From assembly GCF_054482595.1 (NCBI RefSeq), contig NZ_CM137008.1: 64,000 nucleotides of DNA; one strand, 5' to 3'. The notes below the pieces were generated by a model, which saw only the letters and a list, made by a program, of their open reading frames with translations, did not search any database and was not told the DNA's origin. Of this stretch, positions 14,307 to 44,893 are shown piece after piece (position 1 is the stretch's first letter; each line of letters begins with the position of its first letter). The position numbers and the translations under genes were made by a program.

Positions 14307-16226
14307 ATGAATAAGTTTATCGCTGCTGAAGCTGCGGAATGTATAGGCTGTCATGCTTGTGAAATTGCCTGTGCGGTGGCACACAATCAAGAAAACTGGC
14401 CGCTGAGTCACAGTGACTTTCGACCGCGTATCCACGTTGTAGGGAAAGGCCTGGCTGCGAATCCGGTGGCCTGCCATCACTGCAACAATGCCCCTTGCGT
14501 TACGGCTTGTCCGGTTAATGCTCTGACTTTCCAGTCCGATAGCGTACAACTGGACGAGCAAAAATGTATTGGTTGTAAAAGATGCGCAATCGCTTGCCCC
14601 TTTGGCGTCGTTGAGATGGTCGATACGATTGCGCTGAAATGCGACCTTTGTAACCAGCGCAGTTCCGGCACGCAAGCCTGTATTGAAGTCTGCCCAACAC
14701 AGGCGTTACGGCTGATGGACGATAAAGGGTTACAGCAGATAAAGGTGGCCCGCCAGCGCAAAACGGCAGCAGGAAAAGCGTCATCAGACGCTCAGCCATC
14801 TCGCAGTGCAGCGTTGCTCCCCGTTAACTCGCGTAAAGGCGCAGATAAAATTTCAGCGAGTGAACGGAAAACCCACTTTGGCGAAATCTATTGCGGGCTG
14901 GATCCACAACAAGCGACTTATGAGAGTGACCGCTGTGTTTATTGTGCCGAAAAAGCTAACTGCAACTGGCATTGCCCGCTGCATAACGCTATTCCGGATT
15001 ACATCCGTCTGGTACAGGAAGGAAAGATTATTGAAGCGGCAGAACTTTGCCACCAGACCAGTTCCTTACCAGAAATCTGCGGCAGGGTATGCCCACAGGA
15101 CCGTCTTTGTGAAGGCGCATGTACTTTGAAAGATCACTCTGGCGCAGTCTCTATCGGTAATCTGGAACGCTACATCACCGATACCGCGCTGGCGATGGGC
15201 TGGCGTCCCGATGTCAGCAAAGTTGTTCCCCGTATCGAGAAAGTGGCGGTGATTGGCGCTGGGCCTGCAGGGTTAGGGTGTGCTGATATTCTGGCGCGCG
15301 CAGGAGTTCAGGTCGATGTCTTTGATCGCCATCCAGAAATTGGCGGTATGCTGACTTTTGGCATTCCTCCTTTCAAACTCGATAAAACGGTATTAAGCCA
15401 GCGGCGAGAGATATTCACCGCAATGGGAATCGACTTTCATCTTAACTGTGAAATTGGCCGCGATATTACCTTTAGCGATTTAACTTCTGAATATGATGCA
15501 GTTTTCATCGGCGTGGGGACTTACGGGATGATGCGAGCTGATCTGCCGCATGAAGATGCGCCCGGTGTCATTCAGGCTCTACCGTTCTTGACTGCCCATA
15601 CCCGCCAGCTCATGGGGTTGCCGGAGTCTGAAGAGTATCCGCTGACGGACGTGGAAGGTAAGCGAGTCGTGGTATTGGGCGGTGGCGATACGACAATGGA
15701 TTGTTTGCGGACTTCCATCCGCCTCAATGCCGCCAGCGTGACCTGCGCGTATCGTCGTGATGAAGTCAGTATGCCGGGCTCGCGCAAAGAGGTGGTCAAT
15801 GCGCGCGAGGAAGGTGTCGAGTTTCAATTCAATGTTCAGCCGCAATATATCGCTTGTGACGAAGATGGGCGTTTAACTGCGGTGGGCCTGATTCGTACCG
15901 CCATGGGTGAGCCGGGGCCGGATGGTCGCCGTCGTCCTCGTCCGGTTGCGGGTTCAGAGTTTGAATTGCCCGCCGATGTTCTCATTATGGCCTTTGGTTT
16001 CCAGGCGCATGCCATGCCGTGGTTGCAGGGCAGCGGAATTAAACTCGATAAATGGGGCCTGATTCAAACCGGCGACGTTGGGTATTTACCTACCCAGACG
16101 CATCTGAAAAAAGTATTTGCTGGTGGGGATGCAGTTCATGGCGCGGATCTGGTTGTCACTGCCATGGCCGCAGGAAGGCAGGCGGCGCGCGATATGTTAA
16201 CTCTGTTTGATACGAAGGCATCGTGA
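14307..16226 (+). CDS. ygfT: Fused 4Fe-4S ferredoxin / FAD-NAD(P)-binding oxidoreductase
   Basis: Supplied ORF 14292-16226; multiple CxxCxxCxxxCP ferredoxin motifs plus [11 protein letters not shown] dinucleotide-binding motif; start taken as MNKFIAAEA (14307). Confidence 0.88.
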
Positions 16227-16714
16227 TGAAATCGTTAATTATCGTTAATCCGGCTGACTGTATTGGCTGCCGTACTTGTGAAGTGGCCTGTGTGGTCGCT
16301 CACCCTTCAGAACAAGAGTTGAATGCCGATGTCTTTTTACCCCGGCTGAAGGTACAGCGACTGGACTGCATCAGTGCGCCGGTGATGTGCCATCAGTGTG
16401 AAAACGCCCCTTGTGTTGGCGCTTGCCCCGTGGGGGCGCTGACGATGGGCGAGCAGGTGGTGCAGACCAATTCTGCCCGTTGTATTGGCTGTCAGAGTTG
16501 CGTCAGTGCGTGCCCGTTTGGAATGATCACCATTCAGTCGTTGCCGGGGGATACCCGGCAACAAATCGTGAAATGCGATCTCTGTGAACAGCGGGAAGAG
16601 GGGCCTGCCTGCGTTGAATCTTGCCCAACACAGGCGCTGCAGTTGCTTACTGAAAGAGAACTCAGGCGAGTCCGCCAGCAGCGTATTGTTGCCAGCGGTG
16701 AGAATCCTCTGTGA
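16223..16714 (+). CDS. ygfS: 4Fe-4S dicluster ferredoxin-type protein
   Basis: 163-aa ORF with four Cys clusters; overlaps the ygfT stop by 4 nt. Confidence 0.88.
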
Positions 16715-16722
16715 AAGAAATC

Positions 16723-16744
16723 TCCGCGCTGAAAGGCGCGGAGA
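16723..16744. terminator. Bidirectional terminator hairpin between ygfS and ghxQ
   Basis: ctccgcgc-tgaaag-gcgcggag perfect 8-bp inverted repeat between convergent genes. Confidence 0.6.
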
Positions 16745-16749
16745 ATCTA

Positions 16750-18117
16750 TTAGATTGCCCAACCACCCGCGTAAAATGCGACCAGTGCGGCAGTAATGAT
16801 CACCGTACCAATATTCAGCTTTTGCCATTCGCGTGCAAAGACGCGGCCTACGACCAGTGTCACAAAGCCCAGCATAATACCGGTAACGATATTACAAGTC
16901 AGAACGATGAACACGGCACACACCAGGCCAGCCATAGCGTCAATAAAATCATTGAAATCCAGCTTCGAGACGTTACTTAACATCAGCAAACCTACGTACA
17001 TCAGAGCGGGTGCAGTGGCGTAACCAGGGATCAAAAATGACAGCGGTGATAAGAACAGAATCAGCAGGAATAACGCCCCCACTACGGTTGCGGTTAACCC
17101 TGTTTTACCCCCGGCGGCGGTTCCTGCCGCTGATTCGATATAAACCGCTGCGGGCGCTGCGCCCACCAGGCCGGAGAATATTGAACTTACTGAGTCACTG
17201 GTCAGGGCTTTGCCGCCGTTGATGATCTGGTTGTCTTTATCCAACAAATTCGCCTGACCGGCGACGGCACGGATGGTGCCAGTAGCGTCGAACACTGCGG
17301 TCATCACCAATGCCAGTACACTCGGAAGTACAGTTGGCTGGAGTGCGCCCATAATATCGAGGCTGAAAATCAGAGACTTACCATCTTCGCCAGTCAGGCT
17401 TGGCATCGCCACCAGACCGTGGTATTTCACCGCTGGGTCAAAGATTAAGCCGATGATCGAAATTGCAATAATCACCAACAAGATCCCGCCGGGTACGCGA
17501 CACTTCTCCAGACCGAAGATGACCGCCAGCCCCAGCAAGCTCATCATCACCGGGAAGGAGGTAAACGCACCGAGCGCCACTGGCAAGCCTTCAATCGGGT
17601 TTTTGATAACCATTCCCACACCGTTAGCAGCAATCAGCAGCAGAAACAGCCCGATACCGATACCTGTACCGTGAGCGATCCCCATCGGTAAATTACGTAA
17701 GATCCAGGTACGCACACCGGTTACGGAAATGGCGGTGAAGATGACGCCCATCAGAAATACCGCGCCCAGTGCGACAGGAACGCTAATTTGTTGCCCGAGT
17801 ACCAGACTGAATGCGGTAAACGCCGTCAAGGAAATCGCGCAACCAATCGCCATTGGCAAATTGGCCCATAATCCCATCAGCAACGAGCCGAAGCCCGCGA
17901 CCAGACAGGTGGCAACAAACACAGCTGCGGGAGGAAAACCTGCTTTGCCCAGCATTCCCGGAACGACGATAACGGAATAAACCATGGCCAGAAAGGTCGT
18001 TAAGCCAGCCAGTACTTCCTGACGAACGGTACTGCCACGAGCGGTAATTTTAAAATAATTATCCAGCGCGCCCTGTGGCTTTGGTGCGTCCGGTGTTTGT
18101 AGGATGTCTCCAGACAT
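16750..18117 (-). CDS. ghxQ: Guanine/hypoxanthine permease (NCS2/AzgA-like)
   Basis: 455-aa polytopic membrane ORF; K-12 synteny (ygfQ). Confidence 0.88.
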
Positions 18118-18152
18118 AATGATGTCCTCACGAGGATGTAAAAGTTTTATTA

Positions 18153-19472
18153 TTAGTTGCGTTCGTACACCAGACGACCATCAACGTAGGTGCGGTAGAT
18201 CGAACGGTCATCGCCCAACGTCATCATCACGAACAATTTGTCGACTAAAGAAACAGAGTTGTCATAGCGCAGCTGCTGTAGCGGAGTGGCGGTGGGTTCC
18301 ATCACCACGAAATCAGCCTCTTTGCCAGGTAAAAAGTTGCCAATCAAATCGTCAAGGCCCAGAGATTTCGCTCCGCCGAGCGTTGCCAGGTAAAACGCTT
18401 CATATGCCGAGAGGCGATAGCCTTGTAATTGCAACACTTTGTAGGCTTCGTTCAGCGTTTGCAGCATGTTGAAAGTGGTTCCGGCACCGATATCCGTTCC
18501 CATGCCCACTTTGACTTTCTTCTGCCATGCTTTTTTCAAGTTGAATAAGCCGCTGCCGAGGTAAAGGTTGGAGGTCGGACAGAAAGCAATGCTGGATTTG
18601 GTTTCGCTGAGACGATCCCACTCTTTTTCTTCGAGATGGACGCAGTGAGCAAAGACACAGTTTTTACCGGTCAGGCCGTACTGATGGTAAACATCCAGAT
18701 AACCATCATGGTCAGGATAAAGCGATTTCACCCAGGCAATTTCATCTTTGTTTTCACAGAGATGGGTATGTACCCACGTATCCGGATATTCCTCTTTCAG
18801 GCGTTGCGCCATCGCCATCTGTTCAGGAGAAGAAGTAGGGGCGAAGCGTGGCGTAATCGCATATAGCAGACGACCATTTTTGTGCCAGCGTTCAATCAGT
18901 TCTTTGCTTTGGTGATAGCTGCTTTCGGCAGTGTCGAGCAGATAATCCGGTGCGTTACGGTCCATCATCACCTTACCGGCAATCATACGCATATTGATAT
19001 GACTGGCGGCTTCAAACAGCGCATCAACGGATTGCGGATGAACAGTGCCAAACACCAGCGCCGTGGTGGTTCCGTTACGTAAAAGCTGCTTGATGAAGAA
19101 CGCCGACATTTCGCGGGCGTACTCTAAATCCTCATAACGACGTTCAGTAGGGAAGGTGTGTTTATTCAACCACTCCAGCAATTGCTCACCATAGGCCCCC
19201 ACCATTTCACTTTGCGGATAATGGATATGTGTATCGACAAAGCCCGGTACTATCAGTTTGCCGCGATAGTCGCGCACGCGAATGGTGTCAGGAATTTGAT
19301 GCTTTCCGTTTTCCCATTCGCCAAACCATTCCACTTTTCCCTGTTTAATGAGTAATAAACCATCCTCAATAAACCGCAGCGCAGAGGCAATCTCTTCCGG
19401 GTTATCGACCGTACGGGTGACATCAATAAAACTGCCTCGTACCGCTTTTAACGTGTGTTCTCCTGACATCAT
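18153..19472 (-). CDS. guaD: Guanine deaminase
   Basis: Supplied ORF 18153-19592; start trimmed to [15 protein letters not shown] (19472); amidohydrolase HxH motif (VDTHIHYPQ). Confidence 0.92.
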
Positions 19473-19486
19473 TGACTCCTTTACTG

Positions 19487-20887
19487 TTAATCCATATCTT
19501 CCGCTGAGGTAATACCAGGCAGAACGTTTTCCTGTCGGTAGCCACCAGGGAGGATAATATTTAATAAAATCGCAGTTAACCCGCCAGCACAAATAGGGTT
19601 TTCAACTAATACATAAATAGAGGCTGGCAATATTTTAAAAATTTCGGGATCGTAGGAGACGCCAAGCCCTAAACCTAAAGAAGTGGCGACAATAAGTGTT
19701 TCACGCCGCTTTAATCCGTTGGTGATGATGATGCGAATCCCAGCGATGGCAATCATGGAAAACATCAACGTCATTGCGCCTCCCAGAACTGCCGAGGGAA
19801 TGGTCGTGAAGAAGCCGCCAATCATCGGAAATAAGCCGAGGATAACCAGCATTACCGCGATGGTTCGCCCGACATAACGTGAAGCGACGCCAGTCATCTG
19901 AATAACCCCATTATTTTGCGCAAACGTGGTTAATGGTAATGAACCAACAGCGGAGGCGATAACAGAAACCAGACCATCTGCCAGCACGCCGCCTTTCAGT
20001 CGGGACTGATACTCTTCCCCCTGAATGGGGCGGCGGGAAACCATTGCCGTGGCGGTGATATCGCCGACTGCTTCCAGCACGCTAAGCAGATAAATCGTGC
20101 CAACCACCAGGAACTGATGGAAGCTAAAACTAAAGCCGTATTTGAACGGATGTGGGATGGTGATTAACGGCAAATTGCGCATACTGCTGAAATCCACCAT
20201 GCCCAGGCATAACGATGCGATATAGCCGACACATAGCCCAATGGCGATCCCTCCCATGCGTAGCAACGGACTGCGACAGCAGTTAAAGCCGATCACCACA
20301 ATCAAAACCAATAAACCAACGCCGAGATGTTCGTAATTGCCGAACGTACCGCTGCTTTTGGCTGCAAATCCTCCACCAAAATCGATAATGCCGACTTTAA
20401 TCAGGCTTAAGCCGATCATCAGTACCACAATACCGCTGACAGTAGGCGTAATAACCCGACGTAAATAGGGCAGGATAAAAGAAGAGCCGACAACCAGAAA
20501 TGCGCCAACGAAGGAGACGCCGAGAAGCGACGACATGATTAACTCTTCGTGAAAACCGTCGCTTTTCATGCTGCTGCCCAGCGCAATCATGACCGTAACA
20601 AATGAAAAATTGACTGACTGAATTGAGAGTAGGCCAGAACCGACGATGCCGTAGCGGTTTACTTGTAACCAGGTACCAATACCAGAGGCGATCATCGCCA
20701 TAGAAACAAGATAGGCGGTTGTTTCAGCGGAAAGCTGTAAGGCCGCACCCACGATTAACGCGGGGGTTACCATCGGAACGAAAATTGCCAACAGATGGGT
20801 AATGGCACCAACGAGAGCCTGATGAAAGGGAGGGCGATCCTCCAGTTCAAATATAAGGTCAGAACCTGCATGGTTTATATCAGACAT
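19487..20887 (-). CDS. xanQ: Xanthine permease (NCS2 family)
   Basis: Supplied ORF 19487-20944; start trimmed to MSDINHAGSDLIFELEDRPP (20887). Confidence 0.9.
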   Translation of the reverse strand: MSDINHAGSDLIFELEDRPPFHQALVGAITHLLAIFVPMVTPALIVGAALQLSAETTAYLVSMAMIASGIGTWLQVNRYGIVGSGLLSIQSVNFSFVTVMIALGSSMKSDGFHEELIMSSLLGVSFVGAFLVVGSSFILPYLRRVITPTVSGIVVLMIGLSLIKVGIIDFGGGFAAKSSGTFGNYEHLGVGLLVLIVVIGFNCCRSPLLRMGGIAIGLCVGYIASLCLGMVDFSSMRNLPLITIPHPFKYGFSFSFHQFLVVGTIYLLSVLEAVGDITATAMVSRRPIQGEEYQSRLKGGVLADGLVSVIASAVGSLPLTTFAQNNGVIQMTGVASRYVGRTIAVMLVILGLFPMIGGFFTTIPSAVLGGAMTLMFSMIAIAGIRIIITNGLKRRETLIVATSLGLGLGVSYDPEIFKILPASIYVLVENPICAGGLTAILLNIILPGGYRQENVLPGITSAEDMD

Positions 20888-21051
20888 CCCTTCACTCCTT
20901 TTAAAGTAAATTTGATCATCTGAATTAGTAAAATAAATTCCCACGAATTTGGGGCGCAGGACGCCTTGAGAACGGCTTATCTCATTTTCGCAGTCACTAT
21001 TTAGTCATCGTTCAAACAGAGAAACAGGCCGCCGAAGCGGCCATTTATTAC

Positions 21052-23922
21052 TTATATTTTTTCCAGCGCGGTGAGTATTTTCTCCGGTGTGAAATGCCAT
21101 TCGCGTAACCAGATGCCGCAGGCATCGTGAATTGCGGTAGCAATCGCCGGAGCTGCGCCATTTACACCAATTTCCGAGATCGATTTCGCCCCGAACGGGC
21201 CGACTTTATCGTCGCTCGGCACCAACACAGCGCGGAAATCACGCGGAATGTCACCAATTTTCGGTGCGCCGTAACTGCGTAAATCACGCGTTAACGGGTG
21301 ACCTTCGGCGTCATAAATGATCTCTTCGCTCATACTGTGGCCGATAGCACGCAGGGTGGCACCGTAGATTTGTCCCAACGCTAACTCTGGATTGACCGGT
21401 GTACCGCAGTCCAGCAGGGCGTAGAATTTATCCAGGCGGATTTCACCCGTACGCGTGTTGACGGCAACTTCAGCGAAGTTTGCGCCATACGGGAAAGCGA
21501 AATCAGGCGTGATATAACTGCCAGTTCCCACCAGTGAACCAAAGCCGGTGCCGGTTTCGCCTTTATGGGCAATATCCCCGAAACTAACTTCGCCTTTCTT
21601 GCCGCGCACGACGCCCGGCGTTGCTAGTTGAACATCTGCCACTGGCTCACCCAACATTTGCGCGCCGTGGAACAGAATTTTCTCCCGCAGATTTTCCGCT
21701 GCCAAACGCGCCGCGTTACCCGAGAAGCAAGTACCGGACGAGGCATATGCGCCTTTATCAAACAACGCATGATCGGTATCACCGGAGATAACATGCACGT
21801 CCTGCGGTGGGCAGTGCAGCACTTCTGCTGCCAGTTTCGTCACTACAGTATCCAGACCAGTACCAATATCCGCACCGCCAGAATGAACGATAAAGGTGCC
21901 GTCCGATTCCAGTTTGATCATGCAGTTAGCCTGATCGATATCCGGGATACCCGATTTCTGCATGATAATGGCGACGCCGCGACCGATGTGCCAGTCACCA
22001 TTTTGCGGTTTCGGTGAAGACCATTGGATCATCTCGCGACCCTGACGCAGGATCTCTTCCAGTGCGCAGCTGGCGGCGGAAGGAACGGAGGTTGGCGCTT
22101 TACCTTCACCAATTGCACCGAGAATTTTCAGCTCTTGCCCTTCGTGTACCCGGTTACGTTCGATAATTTCCAGTTGGTCGATCTGTAACTGTTCAGCAAG
22201 TTCCGCTAATGCCATGGTGATAGCGAAGTTACCTTTCGGTGCGCCATAACCCTGATAAGCACCATTTGGGCAAATGTTGCTGTAGTAGGTGGTGACCTGG
22301 AAATCGACGTTATCGCACGGATATAAGGGCAGCGACAGCGCCGGTCCGTTACACGGTACGGTGAGTGAGTGGTTGCCGTAAGGGCCAGTGTTGGCGCGGA
22401 AATCCATCTTCACTGCCGTCAGGCGACCATCTTTTTTCGCTCCCAGTTTGACGGTGACTTTCGCGACGTGACGAGAGGTGTTAGCAATAAACTCTTCTTC
22501 ACGGGTGTAGCGGAACAGTACCGGACGCCCGGTCACGCAGGTTGCCCATGCGCACACTTCTTCCAGCAGGATGTCCTGTTTGGAACCAAAACCGCCGCCA
22601 ACTCGCTCTTTAATGACATGAACTTTATGCTGTTTCATGCCCACGAGGCGCGCGACCTGGCGGCGTAAGTGCCATGGTACCTGGGTGGAGGCGTGGATAA
22701 CCAGACGATCGCCATCCATGCGGGTAAAGCAGATATGTGTTTCAGTCGGGCACTGCTGCGCCTGCGTTGAGTTATAGGTTCGCTCAATGATCACATCGGC
22801 ATCGGCAAAGCCTTTGTCCATATCGCCAATATGACCATGAATACTGGCGGCGATATTTTTGCGGGGGCGAGAACCGATCGGGAAGTTAATGATCATATGC
22901 TCGCCGCGCTGGGCTGCATGGCTGTTATCGTCTTCCAGAGTATCTGGCGCACCAGCAACATACACCACCGGTTCATCGTGCACGACAGGCGCATCTTCCG
23001 CCATTGCTTCGTCGATCGACATTACCGGCTTAAGCACTTCATATTCAACGTCGATGAGCTTCAGTGCTTCGAGCGCAATTTCTTCACTTTCAGCGACGAC
23101 TGCAGCAACACGATCGCCGACGTGACGCATTTTCTTGCCGAACATACGGCGGTCAAGCGGTGACGGTTCCGGTGCGCTCTGACCACCCGGGGTATAGTAG
23201 ATATCCGGGCAATTCAGGTGAGTAATAACGTGAACGACGCCCGGTAAGGCTTCAGCTTTGCTGACATCCAGATGAGTAATCAGTGCGTGAGCGTGTGGGC
23301 TACGTAACATTTTAATGACGCAGGCGTCAGCCGTTACGCGGTCTTCAACATAGCAGGGCTTCGCCTGCACCATTTTTGCGGCATCAGTTTTAGGATAATG
23401 CTTACCAATGACTTCAAGGTCGTCACGGAAAGTCGGAGCGATATCAATGGTGGCCTGCGGATTATTTTTACGTGCAACCGCCAGTTCAATGACCTGATAG
23501 TATTGCTGCCAGCCAGCATCGCGGCTAAACAGACCTGAGAGCGAGTCGTCGATCTCTTCGCGGGTAGGTGCGGCGATGCGATCGAGAAGATCGGTGATAA
23601 TCAGAGCCGCAGCTGGATCGTTATAACCAGACTGCACCACGCCAACATCAACCATTGCCTGTTGAACCAGACTTAACTCGTTCCATTTGCCCAGAGATTC
23701 TGCGGTACGAATATCTGCCTTCTCTAACTGTGCGGCAATAAGCAAGGACGCGTTAACGATATTACCGTTAAAGATAATTGCGTCAGAACCGGCAAACCCG
23801 AAGCCATCATCACTGTTGCGTACAGAGTGCATTCCCATGTTAAACAACAGCTTTTGCACGTTTTCGCCTGGATTAACGGTTAGCTCCTGAGGCGCGCCAT
23901 TTAAAGTAAAGTGGATGATCAT
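21052..23922 (-). CDS. xdhD: Molybdopterin-dependent hydroxylase, xanthine-dehydrogenase family (fused Fe-S and Mo-binding domains)
   Basis: 956-aa ORF; matches remembered XdhD/YgfN length and position. Confidence 0.9.
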   Translation of the reverse strand: MIIHFTLNGAPQELTVNPGENVQKLLFNMGMHSVRNSDDGFGFAGSDAIIFNGNIVNASLLIAAQLEKADIRTAESLGKWNELSLVQQAMVDVGVVQSGYNDPAAALIITDLLDRIAAPTREEIDDSLSGLFSRDAGWQQYYQVIELAVARKNNPQATIDIAPTFRDDLEVIGKHYPKTDAAKMVQAKPCYVEDRVTADACVIKMLRSPHAHALITHLDVSKAEALPGVVHVITHLNCPDIYYTPGGQSAPEPSPLDRRMFGKKMRHVGDRVAAVVAESEEIALEALKLIDVEYEVLKPVMSIDEAMAEDAPVVHDEPVVYVAGAPDTLEDDNSHAAQRGEHMIINFPIGSRPRKNIAASIHGHIGDMDKGFADADVIIERTYNSTQAQQCPTETHICFTRMDGDRLVIHASTQVPWHLRRQVARLVGMKQHKVHVIKERVGGGFGSKQDILLEEVCAWATCVTGRPVLFRYTREEEFIANTSRHVAKVTVKLGAKKDGRLTAVKMDFRANTGPYGNHSLTVPCNGPALSLPLYPCDNVDFQVTTYYSNICPNGAYQGYGAPKGNFAITMALAELAEQLQIDQLEIIERNRVHEGQELKILGAIGEGKAPTSVPSAASCALEEILRQGREMIQWSSPKPQNGDWHIGRGVAIIMQKSGIPDIDQANCMIKLESDGTFIVHSGGADIGTGLDTVVTKLAAEVLHCPPQDVHVISGDTDHALFDKGAYASSGTCFSGNAARLAAENLREKILFHGAQMLGEPVADVQLATPGVVRGKKGEVSFGDIAHKGETGTGFGSLVGTGSYITPDFAFPYGANFAEVAVNTRTGEIRLDKFYALLDCGTPVNPELALGQIYGATLRAIGHSMSEEIIYDAEGHPLTRDLRSYGAPKIGDIPRDFRAVLVPSDDKVGPFGAKSISEIGVNGAAPAIATAIHDACGIWLREWHFTPEKILTALEKI

Positions 23923-26077: not shown

Positions 26078-26079
26078 GA

Positions 26080-29178: not shown

Positions 29179-29499
29179 AACCCTCTCCTTAGCTTATACA
29201 GATATCATTGAGTGACCGGTGTTGAGAAATCCGGTGGTTTAGGGGGATAGAGCAACAATCGCACCACTCTTGCCAGGTTTGGCGGGAAATATAAAAAAAT
29301 GTGAGGCGGCTCGAAACTTAAGGGCTTTTTGTGAATGAACTCACAGGTGCCAAATGAGAATTAAAATCACTCCTGAAAATTATTATTGCCAGCCCATTTA
29401 TCACTTTTTCTCTTTTCTCAAAATCAGTGATTCCTTATCATTATGATAAAGAGTGCTGGAGGGGTTAAATATTTGAACGCAATCGTTTAACTACGTTTT

Positions 29500-36474: not shown

Positions 36475-36531
36475 TATTTTTCTCCAGATTTTTTACTCCC
36501 CGTTTTGCAGGGAGCAGTTCCAATAGGGTGA

Positions 36532-37728
36532 TTAAGGTGCTACAGCGTGTTTGCCTTCCCAGACAACTTCGCGGTAGTGCTTCACGTCGGTGTCGCCTTC
36601 GGTGCTGATAACCAGCACCACGGCATCTTTGTTCAGCGCCAGTTTTTCCATCAGGCTTTGACGTTGCGGGTGATAATGAACCGCCGCGAGAACGCCCAAA
36701 CCGACAGCGCCGGATTCACCGGAGATAATGCGCGGGTCGTTGCCGTACGGATTACCCAGCACGCGCATACCTAATGCGGCAACGCTGTCCTGGCAGGAGA
36801 TGAATTGGGTGGCGCAGTTACGTAGGATTTCCCAGCCCAGCGGGTTAGGTTCGCCACAGGCCAGGCCCGCCATGATGGTGGCCATATCACCGCCAACGTT
36901 GACGATGTCGCCTTTGACGCCGGAGCGATAAATACAGTCAGCTTTGTCAGGTTCAACAATAATGCTGTGCAGATTTTGCGGGCTATAGACGTCGACCAGA
37001 TAACCCAGCACACCACCGGCCATTGCTCCGACACCGGCTTGCAGCAGAACGTGCGTCGGGGTTACGCCCATTTCACGCATTTGCTCGACGGCTTCATCTG
37101 CCAGGGTTGCGTAGCCTTGCATGATCCAGGTTGGGATTTTGGTGTAACCTTCCCATGCCGTGTCCTGTACCACTTCCCAGCCGTGCTGCTGCGCGTGTTG
37201 CATGGTCAGGCGAACGGTATCGTCATAGTTCATATCCGTGACGATGCACTCGGCACCGAGGTTCAGAATGGCGTCAACGCGTTCCTGAGCAGAACCTTTC
37301 GGCATGTAAATCACCGCATTCTGTCCGAGTTGCTGCGCTGCCCACGCCACACCGCGCCCGTGGTTGCCGTCGGTGGTGGTCGCGAAAGTCATTTTTTCGC
37401 CGATGGCATTTTTCAGGTGCTCAAATGACAGCGTTTCGATATCAAGATGATATTTTTCACACAATAATTGAGCGATAGCGTACGCACCGCCGAGCATTTT
37501 GAAGGCGTTCAGACCGAATCGTTTTGATTCGTCTTTGACAAGAATTTTCTTCACACCAAAAAGGTTTGCGAGATCGTCCAGCGCACAAAGCGGTGTTGGG
37601 CGATAACCAGCTATTTTCTGGTGGAACTGGCGCGCCAGTTTGGCCTGGCTTTGCGAAAAGAGCGGTGATGTTTCGCCGTTGAAAAATTTGTTATCGGCGA
37701 TATCAATCTTCAATGAGAAAACGGACAT
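36532..37728 (-). CDS. ygeX: 2,3-diaminopropionate ammonia-lyase (PLP-dependent)
   Basis: 398-aa ORF; K-12 synteny (ygeX/dpaL). Confidence 0.9.
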   Translation of the reverse strand: MSVFSLKIDIADNKFFNGETSPLFSQSQAKLARQFHQKIAGYRPTPLCALDDLANLFGVKKILVKDESKRFGLNAFKMLGGAYAIAQLLCEKYHLDIETLSFEHLKNAIGEKMTFATTTDGNHGRGVAWAAQQLGQNAVIYMPKGSAQERVDAILNLGAECIVTDMNYDDTVRLTMQHAQQHGWEVVQDTAWEGYTKIPTWIMQGYATLADEAVEQMREMGVTPTHVLLQAGVGAMAGGVLGYLVDVYSPQNLHSIIVEPDKADCIYRSGVKGDIVNVGGDMATIMAGLACGEPNPLGWEILRNCATQFISCQDSVAALGMRVLGNPYGNDPRIISGESGAVGLGVLAAVHYHPQRQSLMEKLALNKDAVVLVISTEGDTDVKHYREVVWEGKHAVAP

Positions 37729-37785
37729 ATCCTATCCTTTTGGCCTCTGGAAATAGAGGGCCGACCAGCTGATCGGCCCGAGGGG

Positions 37786-38976
37786 TTATTTCACGCGTTC
37801 TTGCGCTTCTTTCAGCAGTTGCTCGAGCAGTGCACCTGGTTTGGCGTATTTACGGGACAGGATCATCGCGGCGATGATATAAGGCTTCCAGCTGGCTTCT
37901 TTGTAGGTAGCGATACGGTATTTTTCGAATACGCCTTCAGTCACTTCACCTTCTTTACAGGATACGCCGCTGATATCAGCTGGCAGGCAGTGCATGTACA
38001 GGGCTTCGCCATCACGGGTCAGTTCCATCATCTCTTCAGTACAATGCCAGTCTTTGTGTTGCGCGTTCTGTGCCAGACACTGTTTTTCCAGTGCTTTTAA
38101 GCCTTCGTGATCGTTCGCACGCAGCAATTCAGTACGCTCTTCCATCACTTTGTAAGGTGCCCATGACTTCGGATAAACGATGTCTGCGTCTTTGAAGGCT
38201 TCTTCCATGCTGGTGACCTGACGGAAGCTACCGCCGGAGGCTTTAGCATTGTTTTTAGCGACTTCAACGACATCCGGGATCAGGTCGTAGCCTTCCGGAT
38301 GGGCCAGGGTGACATCCATACCGAAGCGAGTCATCAGACCGATGATGCCTTGTGGTACAGAGAGCGGTTTGCCATAGCTTGGGGAGTAGGCCCAGGTCAT
38401 GGCGATTTTTTTACCTTTCAGGTTTTCCAGTGAACCAAAGTGTTCACGTAACCATGCCAGGTCAGCCATTGACTGAGTCGGGTGGTCAATATCGCATTGC
38501 AGGTTCACTAAAGCCGGACGTTGCGGCAGCACACCCTGCTTGTAACCGTCATCAAGTGCAGCGCCAACTTCACGCATATAGGCGTTGCCTGCGCCCAGAT
38601 ACATATCGTCGCGAATACCAATAGCGTCGGCGCAGAAGGAGATCATATTGGCGGTTTCACGCACGGTTTCGCCGTGAGCGATTTGTGATTTGCCTTCGTC
38701 GAGATCTTGCTGTGCAAGGCCGAGCAGGTTAAGCGCGGAAGCATAAGAGAAGCGGGTACGGGTGGAGTTGTCGCGGAATACGGAAATACCTAATCCACTA
38801 TTAAAGACTTTGGTTGAGATGTTTTCAGCACGCAGTGCTTTTAATGCTGCGGCAACGTCCAGTACTTGTTTCAGTTCATCTGGCGTCTGTTCCCACGTTA
38901 ACAAAAAATCTTTCTCGTGAAGGTGAGAAGTCAGCGAATTGATATCCTTAATCAGCTCATTAACAGTTTTCATCAT
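37786..38976 (-). CDS. ygeW: Carbamoyltransferase (ATCase/OTCase-family) YgeW
   Basis: 396-aa ORF with STRTR carbamoyl-phosphate-binding motif (DNSTRTRFS). Confidence 0.9.
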   Translation of the reverse strand: MMKTVNELIKDINSLTSHLHEKDFLLTWEQTPDELKQVLDVAAALKALRAENISTKVFNSGLGISVFRDNSTRTRFSYASALNLLGLAQQDLDEGKSQIAHGETVRETANMISFCADAIGIRDDMYLGAGNAYMREVGAALDDGYKQGVLPQRPALVNLQCDIDHPTQSMADLAWLREHFGSLENLKGKKIAMTWAYSPSYGKPLSVPQGIIGLMTRFGMDVTLAHPEGYDLIPDVVEVAKNNAKASGGSFRQVTSMEEAFKDADIVYPKSWAPYKVMEERTELLRANDHEGLKALEKQCLAQNAQHKDWHCTEEMMELTRDGEALYMHCLPADISGVSCKEGEVTEGVFEKYRIATYKEASWKPYIIAAMILSRKYAKPGALLEQLLKEAQERVK

Positions 38977-39451
38977 AAAGTCCCGGTAGTGGAATGACAG
39001 GCAAAGTGGTTTATTTCACTGTGACTTGCCAAAGTGATTGGTGTTTTCACAGCTATACCTGGGACTAACAATAAGTGTGCCAGAATTATCCACGGGGCTG
39101 CAAAAGACTAATTTGACGGATAATGTGTGGGGTTGATCACAAATTGATGCCAGCTTCCGGTTGTTTGTAAAATACGAAAACGTTTGGCTTTTTTTATCGC
39201 GTTATTTATTTGCTGCTAAGTATCAGAAATAAGATAAAGGGACAGGCGATCTCTCTTCAGTTTGATAAACTCACCGCCGTAATTCTCATATTGATATAGA
39301 AATGTGATATCTCTTCCATAATTTTATTAGAAAGTGATAAAAATCTTATGTTTTTATCAAAGCCAATTTCGCCTGAGTTAATATCATCATGATCTGTGAA
39401 CCATCAACGTCTTCAATGATCGACTTTTAAGTAAGTCTGGAAGGTAAAGCT

Positions 39452-41230
39452 ATGGAGCTTGCTACTACGCAGTCAGTATTGATGCAAATTCAACCGACAA
39501 TTCAGCGTTTTGCCAGAATGCTTGCCAGCGTTTTGCAGCTTGAGGTTGAGATCGTTGATGAAAACTTGTGTCGCGTCGCCGGAACTGGCGCGTATGGGAA
39601 GTTTCTTGGTCGCCAGTTGAGCGGCAACTCACGCCTGCTCCGCCACGTCCTGGAAACGAAAACTGAAAAAGTTGTGACACAGTCTCGCTTCGATCCCCTT
39701 TGCGAAGGTTGCGATAGTAAAGAAAATTGCCGCGAAAAAGCATTTCTGGGTACGCCTGTCATTTTACAGGATCGTTGTGTTGGGGTGATAAGTTTGATTG
39801 CCGTTACCCACGAGCAACAAGAGCATATCAGTGATAATTTACGCGAATTTTCTGATTATGTTCGTCATATATCCACCATTTTTGTTTCGAAACTTCTGGA
39901 GGATCAGGGGCCAGGAGATAACATCAGTAAAATATTCGCGACCATGATCGATAATATGGATCAGGGCGTATTAGTTGTAGATGACGAAAATCGGGTTCAG
40001 TTTGTTAATCAGACTGCCTTAAAAACACTTGGTGTTGTGCAAAATAATATTATTGGGAAACCTATCCGTTTCAGACCATTAACATTTGAGAGTAATTTTA
40101 CCCATGGACATATGCAGCATATTGTTTCGTGGGACGATAAAAGTGAATTAATCATTGGTCAATTGCATAACATTCAGGGCCGACAATTATTTTTAATGGC
40201 GTTTCACCAATCGCATACCAGTTTTTCTGTAGCAAATGCACCTGATGAACCGCATATTGAACAATTGGTTGGCGAGTGCCGTGTTATGCGGCAATTAAAA
40301 CGACTCATTAGCCGTATTGCACCCAGCCCATCCAGCGTTATGGTGGTTGGTGAAAGCGGCACGGGTAAAGAAGTTGTCGCCCGTGCAATCCATAAGTTGA
40401 GCGGAAGACGGAATAAACCCTTTATTGCTATCAACTGTGCCGCGATTCCGGAGCAGCTTCTGGAGAGCGAACTGTTCGGTTATGTTAAAGGCGCATTTAC
40501 TGGCGCTTCTGCCAACGGTAAAACAGGGTTGATTCAGGCGGCGAATACGGGCACGCTGTTTCTCGATGAAATAGGTGATATGCCATTAATGTTGCAGGCT
40601 AAATTACTGCGCGCTATTGAGGCACGTGAAATTCTGCCGATTGGTGCCAGTAGCCCAATACAAGTCGACATTCGCATCATTTCTGCAACTAACCAGAATT
40701 TGGCCCAGTTCATTGCCGAAGGTAAATTCCGCGAAGATCTCTTCTACCGACTTAATGTTATCCCGATAACTCTGCCACCGCTGCGTGAACGTCAGGAAGA
40801 TATTGAACTACTGGTGCATTACTTTTTACATCTGCATACCCGTCGTCTGGGATCGGTTTATCCTGGCATTGCTCCCGATGTCGTCGAAATATTGCGTAAG
40901 CATCGTTGGCCCGGAAACCTGCGCGAGTTAAGCAATTTGATGGAATATCTGGTTAACGTTGTTCCTTCAGGTGAAGTTATCGACAGCACGCTCTTGCCGC
41001 CAAATCTGCTGAATAATGGCACAACGGAGCAAAGTGATGTAACAGAGGTCACTGAGGCACACCTGTCACTCGATGATGCGGGCGGCACGGCGCTGGAGGA
41101 GATGGAAAAGCAAATGATCCGCGAGGCGCTTTCACGTCATAACAGCAAGAAGCAAGTTGCTGATGAACTGGGCATCGGCATTGCTACGCTCTATCGCAAG
41201 ATTAAGAAATATGAGTTGTTAAACACATAA
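39452..41230 (+). CDS. ygeV: Sigma-54-dependent transcriptional activator
   Basis: 592-aa ORF with AAA+ sigma-54 interaction domain (GESGTGKE Walker A, GAFTGA motif) and C-terminal HTH; divergent from ygeW. Confidence 0.93.
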   Translation: MELATTQSVLMQIQPTIQRFARMLASVLQLEVEIVDENLCRVAGTGAYGKFLGRQLSGNSRLLRHVLETKTEKVVTQSRFDPLCEGCDSKENCREKAFLGTPVILQDRCVGVISLIAVTHEQQEHISDNLREFSDYVRHISTIFVSKLLEDQGPGDNISKIFATMIDNMDQGVLVVDDENRVQFVNQTALKTLGVVQNNIIGKPIRFRPLTFESNFTHGHMQHIVSWDDKSELIIGQLHNIQGRQLFLMAFHQSHTSFSVANAPDEPHIEQLVGECRVMRQLKRLISRIAPSPSSVMVVGESGTGKEVVARAIHKLSGRRNKPFIAINCAAIPEQLLESELFGYVKGAFTGASANGKTGLIQAANTGTLFLDEIGDMPLMLQAKLLRAIEAREILPIGASSPIQVDIRIISATNQNLAQFIAEGKFREDLFYRLNVIPITLPPLRERQEDIELLVHYFLHLHTRRLGSVYPGIAPDVVEILRKHRWPGNLRELSNLMEYLVNVVPSGEVIDSTLLPPNLLNNGTTEQSDVTEVTEAHLSLDDAGGTALEEMEKQMIREALSRHNSKKQVADELGIGIATLYRKIKKYELLNT

Positions 41231-41240
41231 CCTCAGTGAA

Positions 41241-41262
41241 TCCGGCCTGAATTCAGGCCGGA
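41241..41262. terminator. Bidirectional terminator hairpin between ygeV and xdhC
   Basis: tccggcctgaa/ttcaggccgga perfect 11-bp palindrome between convergent genes, followed by a T-rich tract. Confidence 0.65.
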
Positions 41263-41269
41263 TATCCTT

Positions 41270-41749
41270 TTACTTCGTTTTCTCGCAATCCAGAACTGTA
41301 TTTACAATCATCTGATACCCCGTGCAGCGACAAAGATTTCCCGCCAGTCCGCGACGAATTTCCGTAATGGTTAATGGCTTCTCGCGTGGTTTCGCCAGCA
41401 TTGCCGTGGTAGCCATAATCAGGCCAGGCGTACAAAACCCGCACTGCACTGCGCCGGATTTCGCATAAGCCTGCTGAACATGAGAAAGTTTTCCGCCTTT
41501 CGCTTCACCTTCCAGCGTGCGGATCTCTTTTCCTTCAGCCCAGGCGGCAAGGTATAAGCAACTGTCTATTGCTGTGCCGTCGACCAGCACCGTACAGGCA
41601 CCACATTCACCCACGCAGCACCCTTGTTTGACACTTAGCAGTCCTTGTTCGCGGAGTAATTCCGAGAGCGGCGTGCCTGGTGCGGCATGAAGCTGAAAAG
41701 GCATCCCGTTAATGGTGCATTCGATGGTAATTGTTTCGCTGTGATTCAT
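41270..41749 (-). CDS. xdhC: Xanthine dehydrogenase Fe-S (2Fe-2S) subunit
   Basis: 159-aa ORF with CxxGxCGxC and CGFC cysteine motifs. Confidence 0.93.
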
Positions 41750-42624
41750 TGCAATTTTCCCCCCGCCGCGGCGACGGCTTCGCTAATCACTTTTTTGGTC
41801 ATCGTCTGGATGAGATGCAGACGAAACTCTTTACTGGCCCGCCATGAAGAACGCGGGGCGACATCTTGCAGGACAGATTCGCTGATAGCTTCCAGCGTTT
41901 GCAGGTTTAATGGCGCATTTTGTGCAGTATGTTCGGCATGTTGGCAGCGAATCGGCGTTGGCGCGGCAACACCAAATGCCAGGCGTAATTCGCTGAAATT
42001 GCCGTTATCCAGTCGGCAATGTGCGGCACAGCCAATCGTTGAAATATCCATTGCGTCGCGCATGGCATATTTAAAATGCGCGCTGCCCACGTGTTCTTTC
42101 GGCTGGGGCGGAAAATGAAAGGCGACAAGGATTTCGTCATGCTCAAGAGACACTTTGCCCGGCCCGGTGTGAAAGCCATTAATCGGGACGAAACGAACAC
42201 TGCGTGGGGAGTGGATCTCCAGTTTCGCGTCATAAATGAGCGTTGGCGTGGCAGAATCTGCGCTGGTGGCACCGTTGCAAATATTTCCACCGTAGGTAGC
42301 GACGTTACGGATCTGCGGTCCAGCAATGGACGAGGCCGCAGCACATAACGCCGGGAGATGACGTTGAGTTATAGGATCTTCTATTAGCTGGGTAAATGTC
42401 GTTGCAGAGCCGATACGTAGCGAGCCATCTTCCGCCAGCGTAATTCCCCGCAGCTCCGCCAGATTATGAATATCAACAATATGGCGATAACGGTCATTGT
42501 GATGGTGGAGCTGAATCAGTACGTCAGTGCCACCGGCGAGCAGTTTGGCCTGCGGGTTGTCAGCCAGCAGGTTGATGGCATCGGCAAGGGTTGCTGCGCG
42601 ATGGTAAGAAGCAAAATCAAACAT
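41746..42624 (-). CDS. xdhB: Xanthine dehydrogenase FAD-binding subunit
   Basis: 292-aa ORF; 4-nt overlap with xdhC; K-12 synteny. Confidence 0.93.
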
Positions 42625-42634
42625 GATGTTATCC

Positions 42635-44893
42635 TCAAATCAATCCTGCCAGATGAAACTCTTCATATAACCGTTTTGGCGTCAGCGGCAGTGTATTGAT
42701 TGCAACACCGGTAGCCATCTTCACCGCGTTACGAATAGCTGCGGCAACAGGAATTATTGGTGGCTCACCCAGTGACTTATGTCCGTATGCGGATTGCGGC
42801 TCATTGATTTCGACGAACGCGCTTTCCAGTTGTGGCAGATCCGGCATGGTCGGCATTTTGTAATCCAGCAGATTGGGGTTACGGACCACGCCGCTTTTCG
42901 CATCGATGATCATCTCTTCAAATAGCGCCCAGCCAATGCCCATTCCCATTCCGCCGTGTACCTGACCTTCTGCCAGCAGCGGATTTAGAATATGCCCCGA
43001 ATCATGAACGTTGAGGATGCGGTTGATGGTGACTTTGCACAGCGCAATATCGACCGTCAGATCAACAAAGGTACAGCCGAACGCCGGTGGGTTAGTGGTG
43101 GTTTTGATGGAGCTTTCAGCAGAGAGCTGCCCGCCGCGTTCAGGGTGGTAGAAAGCGTCCATCGCCAAATCTTTTAACGACATTAACGGCTCTTCCGGTC
43201 GTTCAACCAGCACGATATGGCCTTTTATCAGGGTCAGATTCATCTCTGACTGATGTAGCATGACTGCGGCGTGAGCGATGATTTTCTCTTTTAATAACAG
43301 TGCCGCACTGCGCAGCGCAGGCGCAGCAACATAGCTCTGACGTGAGGCAAATGCGCCGGGATCGAATGGCGTAACGTCGGTATCTTGTGTTGAAATAACG
43401 CGAACGTCGCTGACCGGAACCCCCACGGTTTCTGCCACCATTTGCGAGAAGACGGTGTCGGCACCCTGACCGATTTCCGTCGCGCCGCTTTGCACGTTGA
43501 TGGTTCCATCCTGATTCATCAGAAGGCGCGCGCCTGCTATTTCTACGCCGACAGGCCAGGTATTAGAGGTGTAGCTAAAACAGGCGACGCCAACGCCGCG
43601 GCGTAAATTGCCTTGCTGGTTCTGGCATTCTGCACGGCGTTTTTCCCATTCAAAGATTTTCCGGCCTTTTTCAAGACACTCCGGCAACCCTGCGCTGTAA
43701 ATACGTTTGCCCGTGAGCGGATTAGCATCTCCTTCGCGGGCGGCGTTGCGTAAACGAATTTCAACAGGATCAATACCTAACGCTGTCGCGGCGTCATCAA
43801 GCATAGACTCAACGGCAAATACGACTTGTGGCGCGCCATAACCACGCATCGCACCAGCCGAGGGGAGGTTGGTATAGCAGGTCTTTGAACTGTAAGCGTA
43901 GGCACAACGAGGATAAAGGTAAGCGACTTTATTCCCCCCCGCAGAAGCGATGGAGTGCCCGTGAGATGCATAAGCGCCGGTGTTAGACAGAACATCCAGA
44001 CTATAACCTTTCAATGTTCCGTCGCGGTTCACGCCCATTTGCCCGTCAATAGTAAAAGCGTGGCGGGTACGGGTTGCGAGGAAACACTCTTCACGGCTAA
44101 GGGAAACTTTCACCGGAATGCCGCCAAGCTTGCTGGTCAGGAATGCCGCCATTGGCTCTTCCAGTACATCCTGTTTATTACCAAAACCGCCACCGACAAA
44201 TGGTTTGATGACTCGTACGCATGACCAGGGAATATCCAGCGCCTGACCAACCACGCGGCGAACAATGTGCGGGATCTGGGTGCTGGAAACGATGGTAATT
44301 CGCGAGTCATCCTCCATCCACGCCAGCGATGTTACGCTTTCCATGTGACAATGTTGAATAACGGGAGTCTGATAGTGCCCCTGTACCTGGTAGTCGGCGG
44401 CATCGATTGTTTGTTGGACATTGCCCGTCGACATCGTGCTTTGTTTCAGTAAATTGCCGCCGTTATGGATTGGTGCAGCGTCCTCTGCCAGCGCCGCTTC
44501 TGGCGTGGTGATAACGGGTAATTCTTGCCACTCAATGCTGACCAATTGCGCCGCTTTTTCTGCCGTGAGTTCATCGCGGGCCACGACGATGGCAACGGCG
44601 TCACCATGATGACGAACATGGCGAGTTAGCAGTGCGCGATCGGCGGTATCGCGCTTGTTTTCGTCAAGTGTCCATGCATGCCCAGCTGTAGCGAATGGGA
44701 TATCAGGCACATCTTCCCAGGTAAAAATCGCCAGTACGCCTGGTAAACTTCTGGCTTGTTCATCATTAATACTTACGGCATAACCATGTGCGATAGGGCT
44801 ACGTACATATTTCGCATAACACATGCCCGCCATAACATAATCGTCAGTATATCGTGCCCGCCCGGTGACCTTAGCAATGGCATCAACGCGCAT
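42635..44893 (-). CDS. xdhA: Xanthine dehydrogenase molybdenum-binding subunit
   Basis: Supplied ORF 42635-44932; start trimmed to MRVDAIAKVTGRARYTDDY (752 aa). Confidence 0.93.
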   Translation of the reverse strand: MRVDAIAKVTGRARYTDDYVMAGMCYAKYVRSPIAHGYAVSINDEQARSLPGVLAIFTWEDVPDIPFATAGHAWTLDENKRDTADRALLTRHVRHHGDAVAIVVARDELTAEKAAQLVSIEWQELPVITTPEAALAEDAAPIHNGGNLLKQSTMSTGNVQQTIDAADYQVQGHYQTPVIQHCHMESVTSLAWMEDDSRITIVSSTQIPHIVRRVVGQALDIPWSCVRVIKPFVGGGFGNKQDVLEEPMAAFLTSKLGGIPVKVSLSREECFLATRTRHAFTIDGQMGVNRDGTLKGYSLDVLSNTGAYASHGHSIASAGGNKVAYLYPRCAYAYSSKTCYTNLPSAGAMRGYGAPQVVFAVESMLDDAATALGIDPVEIRLRNAAREGDANPLTGKRIYSAGLPECLEKGRKIFEWEKRRAECQNQQGNLRRGVGVACFSYTSNTWPVGVEIAGARLLMNQDGTINVQSGATEIGQGADTVFSQMVAETVGVPVSDVRVISTQDTDVTPFDPGAFASRQSYVAAPALRSAALLLKEKIIAHAAVMLHQSEMNLTLIKGHIVLVERPEEPLMSLKDLAMDAFYHPERGGQLSAESSIKTTTNPPAFGCTFVDLTVDIALCKVTINRILNVHDSGHILNPLLAEGQVHGGMGMGIGWALFEEMIIDAKSGVVRNPNLLDYKMPTMPDLPQLESAFVEINEPQSAYGHKSLGEPPIIPVAAAIRNAVKMATGVAINTLPLTPKRLYEEFHLAGLI

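Follow-up and report, generated by a model that had tools for sequence, protein, structure and literature searches.

An Escherichia coli locus very probably encoding purine uptake and anaerobic uric acid breakdown, with predicted DioR-type control by YgeV

The core of a reductive pathway that breaks down uric acid through 2,8-dioxopurine was solved by two studies in 2025, largely with proteins of Escherichia coli K-12 (PMC12507026; bioRxiv 10.1101/2025.04.24.650524). Here we compare with it the locus at 14307-44893 of a 64,000-nucleotide stretch of contig NZ_CM137008.1 (assembly GCF_054482595.1; the window in what follows), which we read, with a probability of about 0.88, as an intact cluster of the E. 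coli core genome that serves to take up purines and to break down uric acid anaerobically. In K-12, XdhABC oxidises xanthine to urate, and a mutant lacking xdhA stops consuming xanthine. XdhD-YgfM then reduces urate to 2,8-dioxopurine at the expense of NADH (PMC12507026; bioRxiv 10.1101/2025.04.24.650524); YgfM co-purifies with XdhD, in which Glu606 is the residue proposed to orient urate. YgfK, a reductase acting after XdhD and not a hydroxylase subunit, reduces 2,8-dioxopurine, SsnA hydrolyses the product to ureidomethylhydantoin, and HyuA opens the hydantoin, the second ring. YgeW next splits off the 2-ureido group by means of phosphate, giving carbamoyl phosphate, from which YqeA makes ATP; YgeY takes away the other one, the 3-ureido group; and YgeX turns 2,3-diaminopropionate into pyruvate and ammonia. 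All of these steps were demonstrated by the 2025 enzymology, and mutants lacking xdhD or ygfK lose precisely the steps assigned to them.

Related systems are described at several distances. The clusters of Clostridium sporogenes and C. difficile share the chemistry, a homologous XdhD-type enzyme, SsnA, HyuA, YgeY and YgeX, and carry yqeB and yqeC nearby; C. difficile, however, uses UacX for YgfK and the hydrolase UacY for YgeW plus YqeA, lacks YgfM, and probably draws its electrons from ferredoxin, whereas E. coli uses NADH through NADH-linked flavin adenine dinucleotide (FAD) subunits. A computational reconstruction in Clostridiales, with E. coli not included, placed a sigma-54 regulon under the regulator DioR and gave its function as "Unknown"; sites such as ATTTATCATAATGATAAGG were found upstream of dpaL, ygeW-ygfK-ssnA-ygeY, yqeC-ygfJ-yqeB and xdhABC (Nie, Dong and Yang 2019, PMC6615313). 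The reductive pyrimidine (Pyd) pathway (PydA, PydB, PydC) offers a chemical parallel in its flavin-dependent ring reduction, amidohydrolase ring opening and ureido cleavage, and YgfK shares with it a dihydropyrimidine-dehydrogenase-type iron-sulphur (Fe-S) domain; here, however, the purine is first dehydroxylated at C6 by a molybdenum enzyme, and the route has two rings and two ureido groups to dispose of.

Each gene of K-12 MG1655 from actS to lysS was mapped onto the window. The locus is the b2866-b2887 block of that strain, ygfT to xdhA, and is collinear with it. The initial annotation, made from the letters of the window, had called the cluster apparently complete, with all frames looking intact, and had pointed to pseudogenes and to gene order as the things to compare with K-12. 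Both comparisons bear it out: the 22 genes from ygfT (14307) to xdhA (44893), together with uacT, align to K-12 without gaps, frameshifts or internal stops, their start and stop positions are identical, their nucleotide identity is 97.5-99.6% (about 99% overall), and their order is that of b2866-b2888. The span from uacT to xdhA measures 32,471 bp in both strains and therefore holds no indels; the sole difference in length is a 1-bp indel near 45178, in the spacer between xdhA and actS. Substitutions from uacT to xdhA, summed over per-gene counts, amount to 307 nucleotides but merely 30 amino acids, which indicates that the cluster genes are under purifying selection. Because the proteins differ from the assayed K-12 ones by 0-4 residues each, we take the published chemistry as applying to this strain, and every feature of the reductive uric acid (2,8-dioxopurine) pathway that can be checked on a sequence is present, which would make the locus a member of that family. 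The first 20 kb of the locus are 100% identical to several sequenced E. coli strains, among them XH990, which shows one mismatch in the 40 kb around it. Among 5426 complete E. coli genomes, the cluster is present in at least 5147, a lower bound, with presence scored where 80% or more of each half of the region was found in one piece. There is no compositional sign of recent acquisition, and neither riboswitches nor other RNA families came up for the cluster in an Rfam scan, whose sole hit was a tRNA-Gly. The system is thus already known: it is the K-12 cluster in another strain. Its genes and the hairpins between them are as follows.

12423-13871, minus strand: uacT, urate/H+ symporter of 482 amino acids, identical to K-12 UacT; Xan_ur_permease domain
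14307-16226, plus strand: ygfT, Fe-S/flavin oxidoreductase (AegA paralogue) with a cited role in formate-dependent urate utilisation; NF009451, 1499.7 bits
16226-16714, plus strand: ygfS, HydN-like 4Fe-4S dicluster protein, by K-12 alignment and Pfam/NCBIfam
16750-18117, minus strand: ghxQ, guanine/hypoxanthine permease of the NCS2 type, by RefSeq, K-12 alignment and domain scan
18153-19472, minus strand: guaD, guanine deaminase, on the same three grounds
19487-20887, minus strand: xanQ, xanthine permease of the NCS2 type, also on these grounds
21027-21042, minus strand: GC-rich hairpin, probably marking an operon boundary, directly past the stop codon of xdhD
21052-23922, minus strand: xdhD, molybdenum/2Fe-2S subunit, urate to 2,8-dioxopurine, by domain scans and published enzymology; Glu606 present
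23919-24698, minus strand: ygfM, FAD subunit of XdhD, by domain scans and published co-purification
24749-26077, minus strand: ssnA, amidohydrolase opening the reduced pyrimidine ring, by TIGR03314 (739 bits) and published enzymology
26080-29178, minus strand: ygfK, Fe-S flavoenzyme, 2,8-dioxopurine reductase, by domain scans and published enzymology
29500-30078, minus strand: mocA, molybdenum cofactor cytidylyltransferase; TIGR03310
30181-30951, plus strand: yqeC, selenium-cofactor marker protein; TIGR03172, 241 bits
30999-32624, plus strand: yqeB, XdhC-like maturation factor fused to a YqeB domain; TIGR03309, 417 bits
32633-32658, minus strand: terminator-like hairpin downstream of yqeA
32845-33777, minus strand: yqeA (arcC), carbamate kinase, ATP from carbamoyl phosphate, by NCBIfam and published enzymology, as for the next four genes
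33825-35210, minus strand: hyuA, hydantoinase opening ureidomethylhydantoin
35263-36474, minus strand: ygeY, M20 hydrolase removing the 3-ureido group
36532-37728, minus strand: ygeX (dpaL), diaminopropionate ammonia-lyase giving pyruvate and NH3
37786-38976, minus strand: ygeW, knotted carbamoyltransferase, phosphorolysis of the 2-ureido group
39452-41230, plus strand: ygeV (isrR), sigma-54 activator with GAF-like, PAS, AAA+ (GAFTGA) and Fis-type HTH (helix-turn-helix) parts, by domain scans and a structural model
41240-41263, plus strand: terminator-like hairpin past ygeV
41270-41749, minus strand: xdhC, 2Fe-2S subunit of xanthine dehydrogenase, by domain scans
41746-42624, minus strand: xdhB, its FAD subunit, by domain scans
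42635-44893, minus strand: xdhA, its molybdenum subunit, by domain scans and published data on the xdhA mutant (K-12 start; RefSeq start 44932)

The start of xdhA is ambiguous, the K-12 start at 44893 giving 752 amino acids and the RefSeq start, 39 nucleotides further upstream, 765. The better Shine-Dalgarno sequence (GAGGGG) of the upstream ATG and an NCBIfam model that aligns from its position 11 suggest the longer form.

Going by what is established for their families, UacT, XanQ and GhxQ import the substrates, GuaD converts guanine to xanthine, and MocA turns the molybdenum cofactor into its cytidine form. YgfT and YgfS would feed in electrons from formate, and papers citing Iwadate and Kato 2019 (PMC6509651) credit that study with linking ygfT to formate-dependent urate utilisation. 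YqeB and YqeC would mature the molybdenum enzymes, possibly with selenium. Scans of the cluster proteins against Pfam and NCBIfam recover two molybdenum enzymes only. One is XdhABC, with separate molybdenum, FAD and 2Fe-2S subunits (NF007426 1475 bits, NF007427 530 bits, NF007387 342 bits); the other is XdhD, which joins a fused 2Fe-2S part to its molybdenum domains (Pfam Fer2_2, Ald_Xan_dh_C and MoCoBD_1/2; TIGR03313 2121 bits) and has YgfM as its FAD subunit (TIGR03312 490 bits). XdhD keeps a glutamate at position 606, the active-site residue that separates it from XdhA. YgfK, YgfT and YgfS show Fe-S and flavin/NAD(P) domains without a molybdenum cofactor domain: YgfK (TIGR03315 1779 bits; its gene lies 2 bp from ssnA) combines a dihydropyrimidine-dehydrogenase-type 4Fe-4S domain with a pyridine-nucleotide oxidoreductase domain, and YgfT has ferredoxin-like and GltD-like domains. 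SsnA, MocA, YqeC, YqeB, the carbamate kinase, the hydantoinase HyuA, YgeY, the diaminopropionate ammonia-lyase YgeX and YgeW all score above the curated NCBIfam cut-offs, the three NCS2-type permeases and guanine deaminase likewise exceed those of their curated families, and the last five of the route (HyuA, YgeW, carbamate kinase, YgeY, YgeX) are all intact.

These scans bear on the strongest alternative, that the locus serves purine catabolism in general, supplying nitrogen from purines, and encodes three molybdenum hydroxylases in parallel, several of them of unknown function. Much of what such a description says is right, including the gene names and the intactness. The initial annotation had correctly recognised guanine deaminase (a guaD family match above cut-off), the maturation genes mocA, yqeB and yqeC and the amidohydrolase and carbamoyl enzymes (curated family matches), and a sigma-54 activator, which is YgeV with its AAA+ (GAFTGA) and Fis-type HTH domains; its permeases uacT, ghxQ and xanQ are also correct in identity, although uacT, at 12423-13871, lies outside the span 14307-44893 to which it had been assigned. 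The count of three sets of molybdo-hydroxylase components, in contrast, fails on the domain scans, with molybdenum cofactor domains in XdhA and XdhD only. Its remark that several members are functionally unassigned still applies to the exact roles of YgfT/YgfS and YqeB/YqeC and to the signal of YgeV, but no longer to eight enzymes whose reactions were shown in 2025 and which now form one linear anaerobic route to pyruvate and ATP. We therefore consider the three-hydroxylase description unlikely, though it keeps more credit than any other rival.

Under many laboratory conditions urate is broken down only poorly by E. coli, and one study puts the differences between E. coli strains in urate use down to regulation, not enzymes. 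In K-12, chromatin immunoprecipitation sequencing (ChIP-seq) of sigma-54 located sites upstream of xdhA, ygeW, ygfK and ygfT and one inside yqeC; the last has been validated as a promoter, and without it YqeB protein is undetectable. The window has an exact copy of each of the five motifs. These published motifs were used for the map below, since a scan demanding GC at -12 misses the ygeW promoter (TTGTT). Dyads and sites of the cyclic AMP receptor protein (CRP) are given without strand.

13940-13955, minus strand: weak candidate sigma-54 promoter for uacT, TGGCACTCCACGAGCA, which lies 68 bp upstream of the start of that gene and is a 9/11 match
14066-14078: DioR/YgeV-type dyad TCTCATATTGATA in the spacer between uacT and ygfT, upstream of the sigma-54 motif of ygfT by 165 bp and of the candidate promoter of uacT by 110 bp
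14244-14260, plus strand: sigma-54 site upstream of ygfT, TATGCCCGTTTATTGCA, identical to OS32 of the K-12 ChIP-seq
29251-29267, minus strand: sigma-54 promoter of ygfK-ssnA-ygfM-xdhD, exact match to OS31, conserved in Enterobacter sp. Bisph1
29330-29345: perfect CRP consensus TGTGAATGAACTCACA, between the ygfK enhancer and promoter
29436-29448: perfect DioR/YgeV-type dyad TATCATTATGATA in the ygfK upstream region, conserved in Bisph1
30582-30598, plus strand: sigma-54 promoter inside yqeC, driving yqeB, exact match to the validated K-12 site IS34
39067-39083, minus strand: sigma-54 promoter of the ygeW operon, CTGGCACACTTATTGTT, exact match to OS30, found also by genomic SELEX (gSELEX) and conserved in Bisph1
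39126-39141: CRP-like site (9/10) between the enhancer and the ygeW promoter, half-sites conserved in Bisph1
39284-39296: DioR/YgeV-type dyad, 200 bp upstream of the ygeW promoter
39382-39394: second dyad, possibly for autoregulation, 57 bp upstream of the start codon of ygeV
44988-45004, minus strand: sigma-54 promoter of xdhABC, exact match to ChIP-seq site OS29
45123-45135: DioR/YgeV-type dyad, about 118 bp upstream of the xdhA promoter

The end of the initially annotated span, 44893, leaves out the xdhA promoter and enhancer, which reach 45135.

The dyads were found by enumerating every 5+5 dyad with spacers of 0-12 and at most one mismatch in the four large upstream regions, with composition-matched shuffles as control; this replaced a 6-mer enrichment against the whole-window background, which AT-rich spacers confounded. 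TATCA-N3-TGATA is the sole 5+5 dyad common to all four regions, and none of 5 shuffles gave a dyad shared in this way. The four promoter regions hold 5 dyads in 1685 bp against 0.14 expected (equalled in 0 of 2000 composition-matched shuffles), and the whole window holds 7 against 1.29 expected, a number reached in 0 of 100 shuffles. The five in the promoter regions lie about 119-299 bp upstream of the xdhA, ygeW, ygfK and ygfT promoters. The reverse complement of the dyad at 29436, with its flanks, contains the same 17-mer, TTATCATAATGATAAGG, as a published DioR site of C. botulinum. None of the substitutions relative to K-12 falls in a sigma-54, dyad or CRP motif. Enterobacter sp. Bisph1, whose YgeV is 69% identical, has perfect dyads before its ygeW and ygfK promoters, and when its spacers are aligned with those of E. 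coli, conservation is concentrated in blocks formed by the dyads, CRP-like sites and -24/-12 elements. Sedimentibacter and one Clostridium genome carry YgeV-like genes (36-39% identical) adjoining urate-pathway genes, which have strong sigma-54 promoters and several perfect dyads upstream. The 2025 studies report that glucose represses the pathway, and their authors placed (and replaced) a native Crp site in the spacer between ygeV and ygeW; the CRP sites at ygfK and ygeW fit both observations. As to uacT, the gene is listed in the YgeV iModulon, and its candidate promoter lies 110 bp from the dyad at 14066, so that one enhancer might serve the divergent uacT and ygfT.

The promoter inside yqeC stands apart, with no nearby dyad even at two mismatches and a reported response to nitrogen limitation; for these reasons the maturation genes are probably under separate control in E. 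coli. This differs from the Clostridial regulon, to which yqeC and yqeB belong. The same response, together with a gSELEX signal for NtrC in the xdhB-xdhC region, could be taken to mean that NtrC is the main driver of the sigma-54 promoters under nitrogen limitation and YgeV a secondary one. Yet the sole promoter linked to nitrogen limitation is the sole one without a dyad, the other four of the five have a DioR-type dyad at enhancer distance that is conserved across phyla, and expression of ygfT is lower in a ygeV mutant, as a citing paper relates of Iwadate and Kato 2019 (PMC6509651). We judge a leading role of NtrC to be improbable.

Control by YgeV accords with the build of the protein. 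Its first 150 residues match no Pfam family; a PAS domain follows at 162-205, then an AAA+ domain (PF00158, 238 bits) with GAFTGA and a Walker A motif visible in the alignment, then a Fis-type HTH (PF02954). The HTH recognition helix, LGIGIATLYRKI, is invariant between YgeV and its aligned relatives. Regulator architecture, this helix, the TTATCA-N3-TGATAA site, its position 100-300 bp upstream of -24/-12 promoters and the target genes are all alike in the DioR regulon. We propose that YgeV is probably the E. coli, or enterobacterial, DioR and that it would bind the TATCA-N3-TGATA dyads upstream of the xdhA, ygeW, ygfK and ygfT promoters, because the dyad is identical to DioR sites and the recognition helix is invariant. 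That YgeV binds these dyads and senses urate or 2,8-dioxopurine is a modestly new proposal towards which we lean, with real room for doubt; connecting YgeV of E. coli with the enhancer code of DioR is the small addition of this analysis.

The sensor part of YgeV was approached through a protein search, which returned mostly fragments, an alignment of 20 sequences, and a model of residues 1-255 (predicted local distance difference test, pLDDT, 77). The model shows two alpha/beta domains, with low TM-scores as it spans both, and some homologues carry precomputed GAF hits; together these support a putative GAF-like plus PAS sensor. The best relevant structural match is the N-terminal sensor of E. 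coli DhaR (PDB 4LRX), which has GAF-like and PAS modules as well but shares only about 15% identity at a TM-score of 0.37, and DhaR senses its protein partners DhaK and DhaL. Within the N-terminal part, C84-x2-C87-x5-C93 is invariant in five full-length relatives aligned. A speculative idea, to which we give little credence, is that these cysteines could bind a metal or a selenium species, or carry an Fe-S cluster, so that the regulon would be switched by redox or cofactor state besides a purine ligand; if so, expression of the pathway would be tied to the ability of the cell to mature molybdenum (or selenium-containing molybdenum) enzymes.

Several points weigh against our reading of the locus and its control. 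The searchable literature holds no test of YgeV binding to the dyads and no such claim for E. coli. The YgeV iModulon had its highest activity in cpxR/baeR knockouts under ethanol and not with purines, and ygeV, renamed IsrR, has been presented as a virulence-gene regulator that indole induces. At ygfT the sigma-54 motif is weak, with a ChIP-seq score of 4.5, and the candidate uacT promoter is absent from the ChIP-seq list. Two perfect dyads lie outside promoter regions, at 37440-37452 in ygeX and at 52393-52405 in an AIPR gene of the neighbouring island; these may be chance matches. With regard to selenium, Johnstone and Self wrote that E. coli "likely does not make" selenium-dependent molybdenum enzymes, neither XdhD (298 bits) nor XdhA (372 bits) reaches the cut-off of 830 for TIGR03311 (selenium-dependent xanthine dehydrogenase), and we found no direct test in the literature of selenium dependence of the E. 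coli enzymes.

The IsrR work invites the view that YgeV is chiefly an indole-signalling virulence regulator and its place in the cluster incidental. The gene is indeed strongly induced by indole, and mutants are altered in LEE (locus of enterocyte effacement) expression and in mouse infection. The paper shows, however, neither a DNA site nor ligand binding, and in Enterobacter and Clostridia the regulator adjoins urate-pathway genes bearing its dyad. The paper also calls YgeV an "orphan response regulator", but Pfam finds no receiver domain (Response_reg) in it, its N-terminus being GAF-like plus PAS; the label is thus a misfit to the domain content. An incidental position appears to us less probable still than a leading role of NtrC.

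Selenium dependence itself had been claimed for the cluster on account of the marker genes yqeB and yqeC, which do adjoin the molybdenum enzymes. As a description of E. coli this is overstated, since dependence has been shown in the Clostridial system and not here: in C. sporogenes the enzyme purified from a selD mutant is inactive (2025 studies), and growth of C. difficile on purines needs SelD and YqeB, according to a paper citing PMC11448449. The 64-kb window does not contain selD.

Selenium also figures in the names that databases give these proteins. NCBIfam lists Se_ygfK as a "putative selenate reductase subunit", with Se_sel_red_Mo and Se_sel_red_FAD beside it, and RefSeq follows for YgfK, so that YgfK-YgfM-XdhD might be primarily a selenate reductase. 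Purified XdhD-YgfM, however, turns urate into 2,8-dioxopurine, YgfK with SsnA gives ureidomethylhydantoin, and the xdhD and ygfK mutants lose exactly those steps, which leaves this reading very unlikely. The names trail the 2025 enzymology elsewhere as well as at 26080-29178 ("putative selenate reductase subunit YgfK"), namely at 33825-35210 ("D-phenylhydantoinase") and 35263-36474 ("YgeY family selenium metabolism-linked hydrolase"). Finally, the idea that this strain keeps the cluster only as a decaying, cryptic remnant, as the poor urate degradation by E. coli might suggest, is refuted at the sequence level by the absence of stops, frameshifts and indels and by the 307 nucleotide against 30 amino-acid differences, with unchanged regulatory motifs and near-universal presence in E. 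coli, and hardly deserves further weight.

The medical significance of the pathway was established by earlier literature and does not derive from this window: gut bacteria with the cluster lower host uric acid (PMC12507026; bioRxiv 10.1101/2025.04.24.650524), and E. coli Nissle engineered to over-express it reduced serum urate in mice (2025 studies). What we add is a corrected enzyme count, an update of functions and a testable regulatory map. With its five conserved sigma-54 sites, four of them paired with a DioR-type dyad and two also with CRP sites, the map could be of help in de-repressing the native pathway.

Two further loci in other genera were seen in passing. In Enterobacter sp. Bisph1 (L003, 1-11755) the cluster is compact, with about half of yqeB (49% of the query) standing alone between ygfK and yqeA-hyuA-ygeY-ygeX-ygeW-ygeV, and no match to mocA or yqeC between ygfK and yqeA. 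In Citrobacter werkmanii (L005, 7207-11740) a YgeV-like regulator (38% identical) stands beside only ygeX-like and ygeY-like genes, with two near-perfect dyads and a sigma-54-like motif in between; this may be a smaller, paralogous regulon of the diaminopropionate type.

To the right of the cluster, the window differs from K-12 in its neighbourhood beyond glyU, where K-12 carries remnants of the E. coli type III secretion system 2 (ETT2) and the window an integrase-led island (46182-52903), with a GC content down to 0.41. The region 46300-56000 is found, at least 80% of it in one place, in only 11 of 5426 complete E. coli genomes. Its features are these.

46182-46255: tRNA-Gly(CCC), glyU
46345-48288: integrase of 647 amino acids, then a hypothetical gene
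50478-51041: small recombinase
51128-52903: AIPR-family gene (abortive-infection type)

An IS2 insertion at about 53199-54529 interrupts a hypothetical island gene and is not in the otherwise identical XH990; it has the typical end TAGACTGGCCCCCTGAATCTCCAGACAACC, open reading frames of 136 and 301 amino acids and a 5-bp direct repeat, GCGAC. A reading of 58-64 kb as ETT2 type III secretion genes was rejected; the window departs from XH990 at 53199 and again at 57076. From 57540 to the window end stands a chromosomal antibiotic-resistance module (GC 0.56-0.63 over 57077-64000).

57540-58359: IS26
58462-59322: aac(3)-IId
59548-60367: IS26, second copy
60437-61342: mph(A)
61339-62577: mrx(A)
62577-63161: mphR(A)
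from 63654, ending at the window edge: IS6100

The end of homology to XH990 at 57076 is separated by 463 bp from the first IS26, and the module matches, at 100% identity, many plasmids as well as a segment of the chromosome of SM107.

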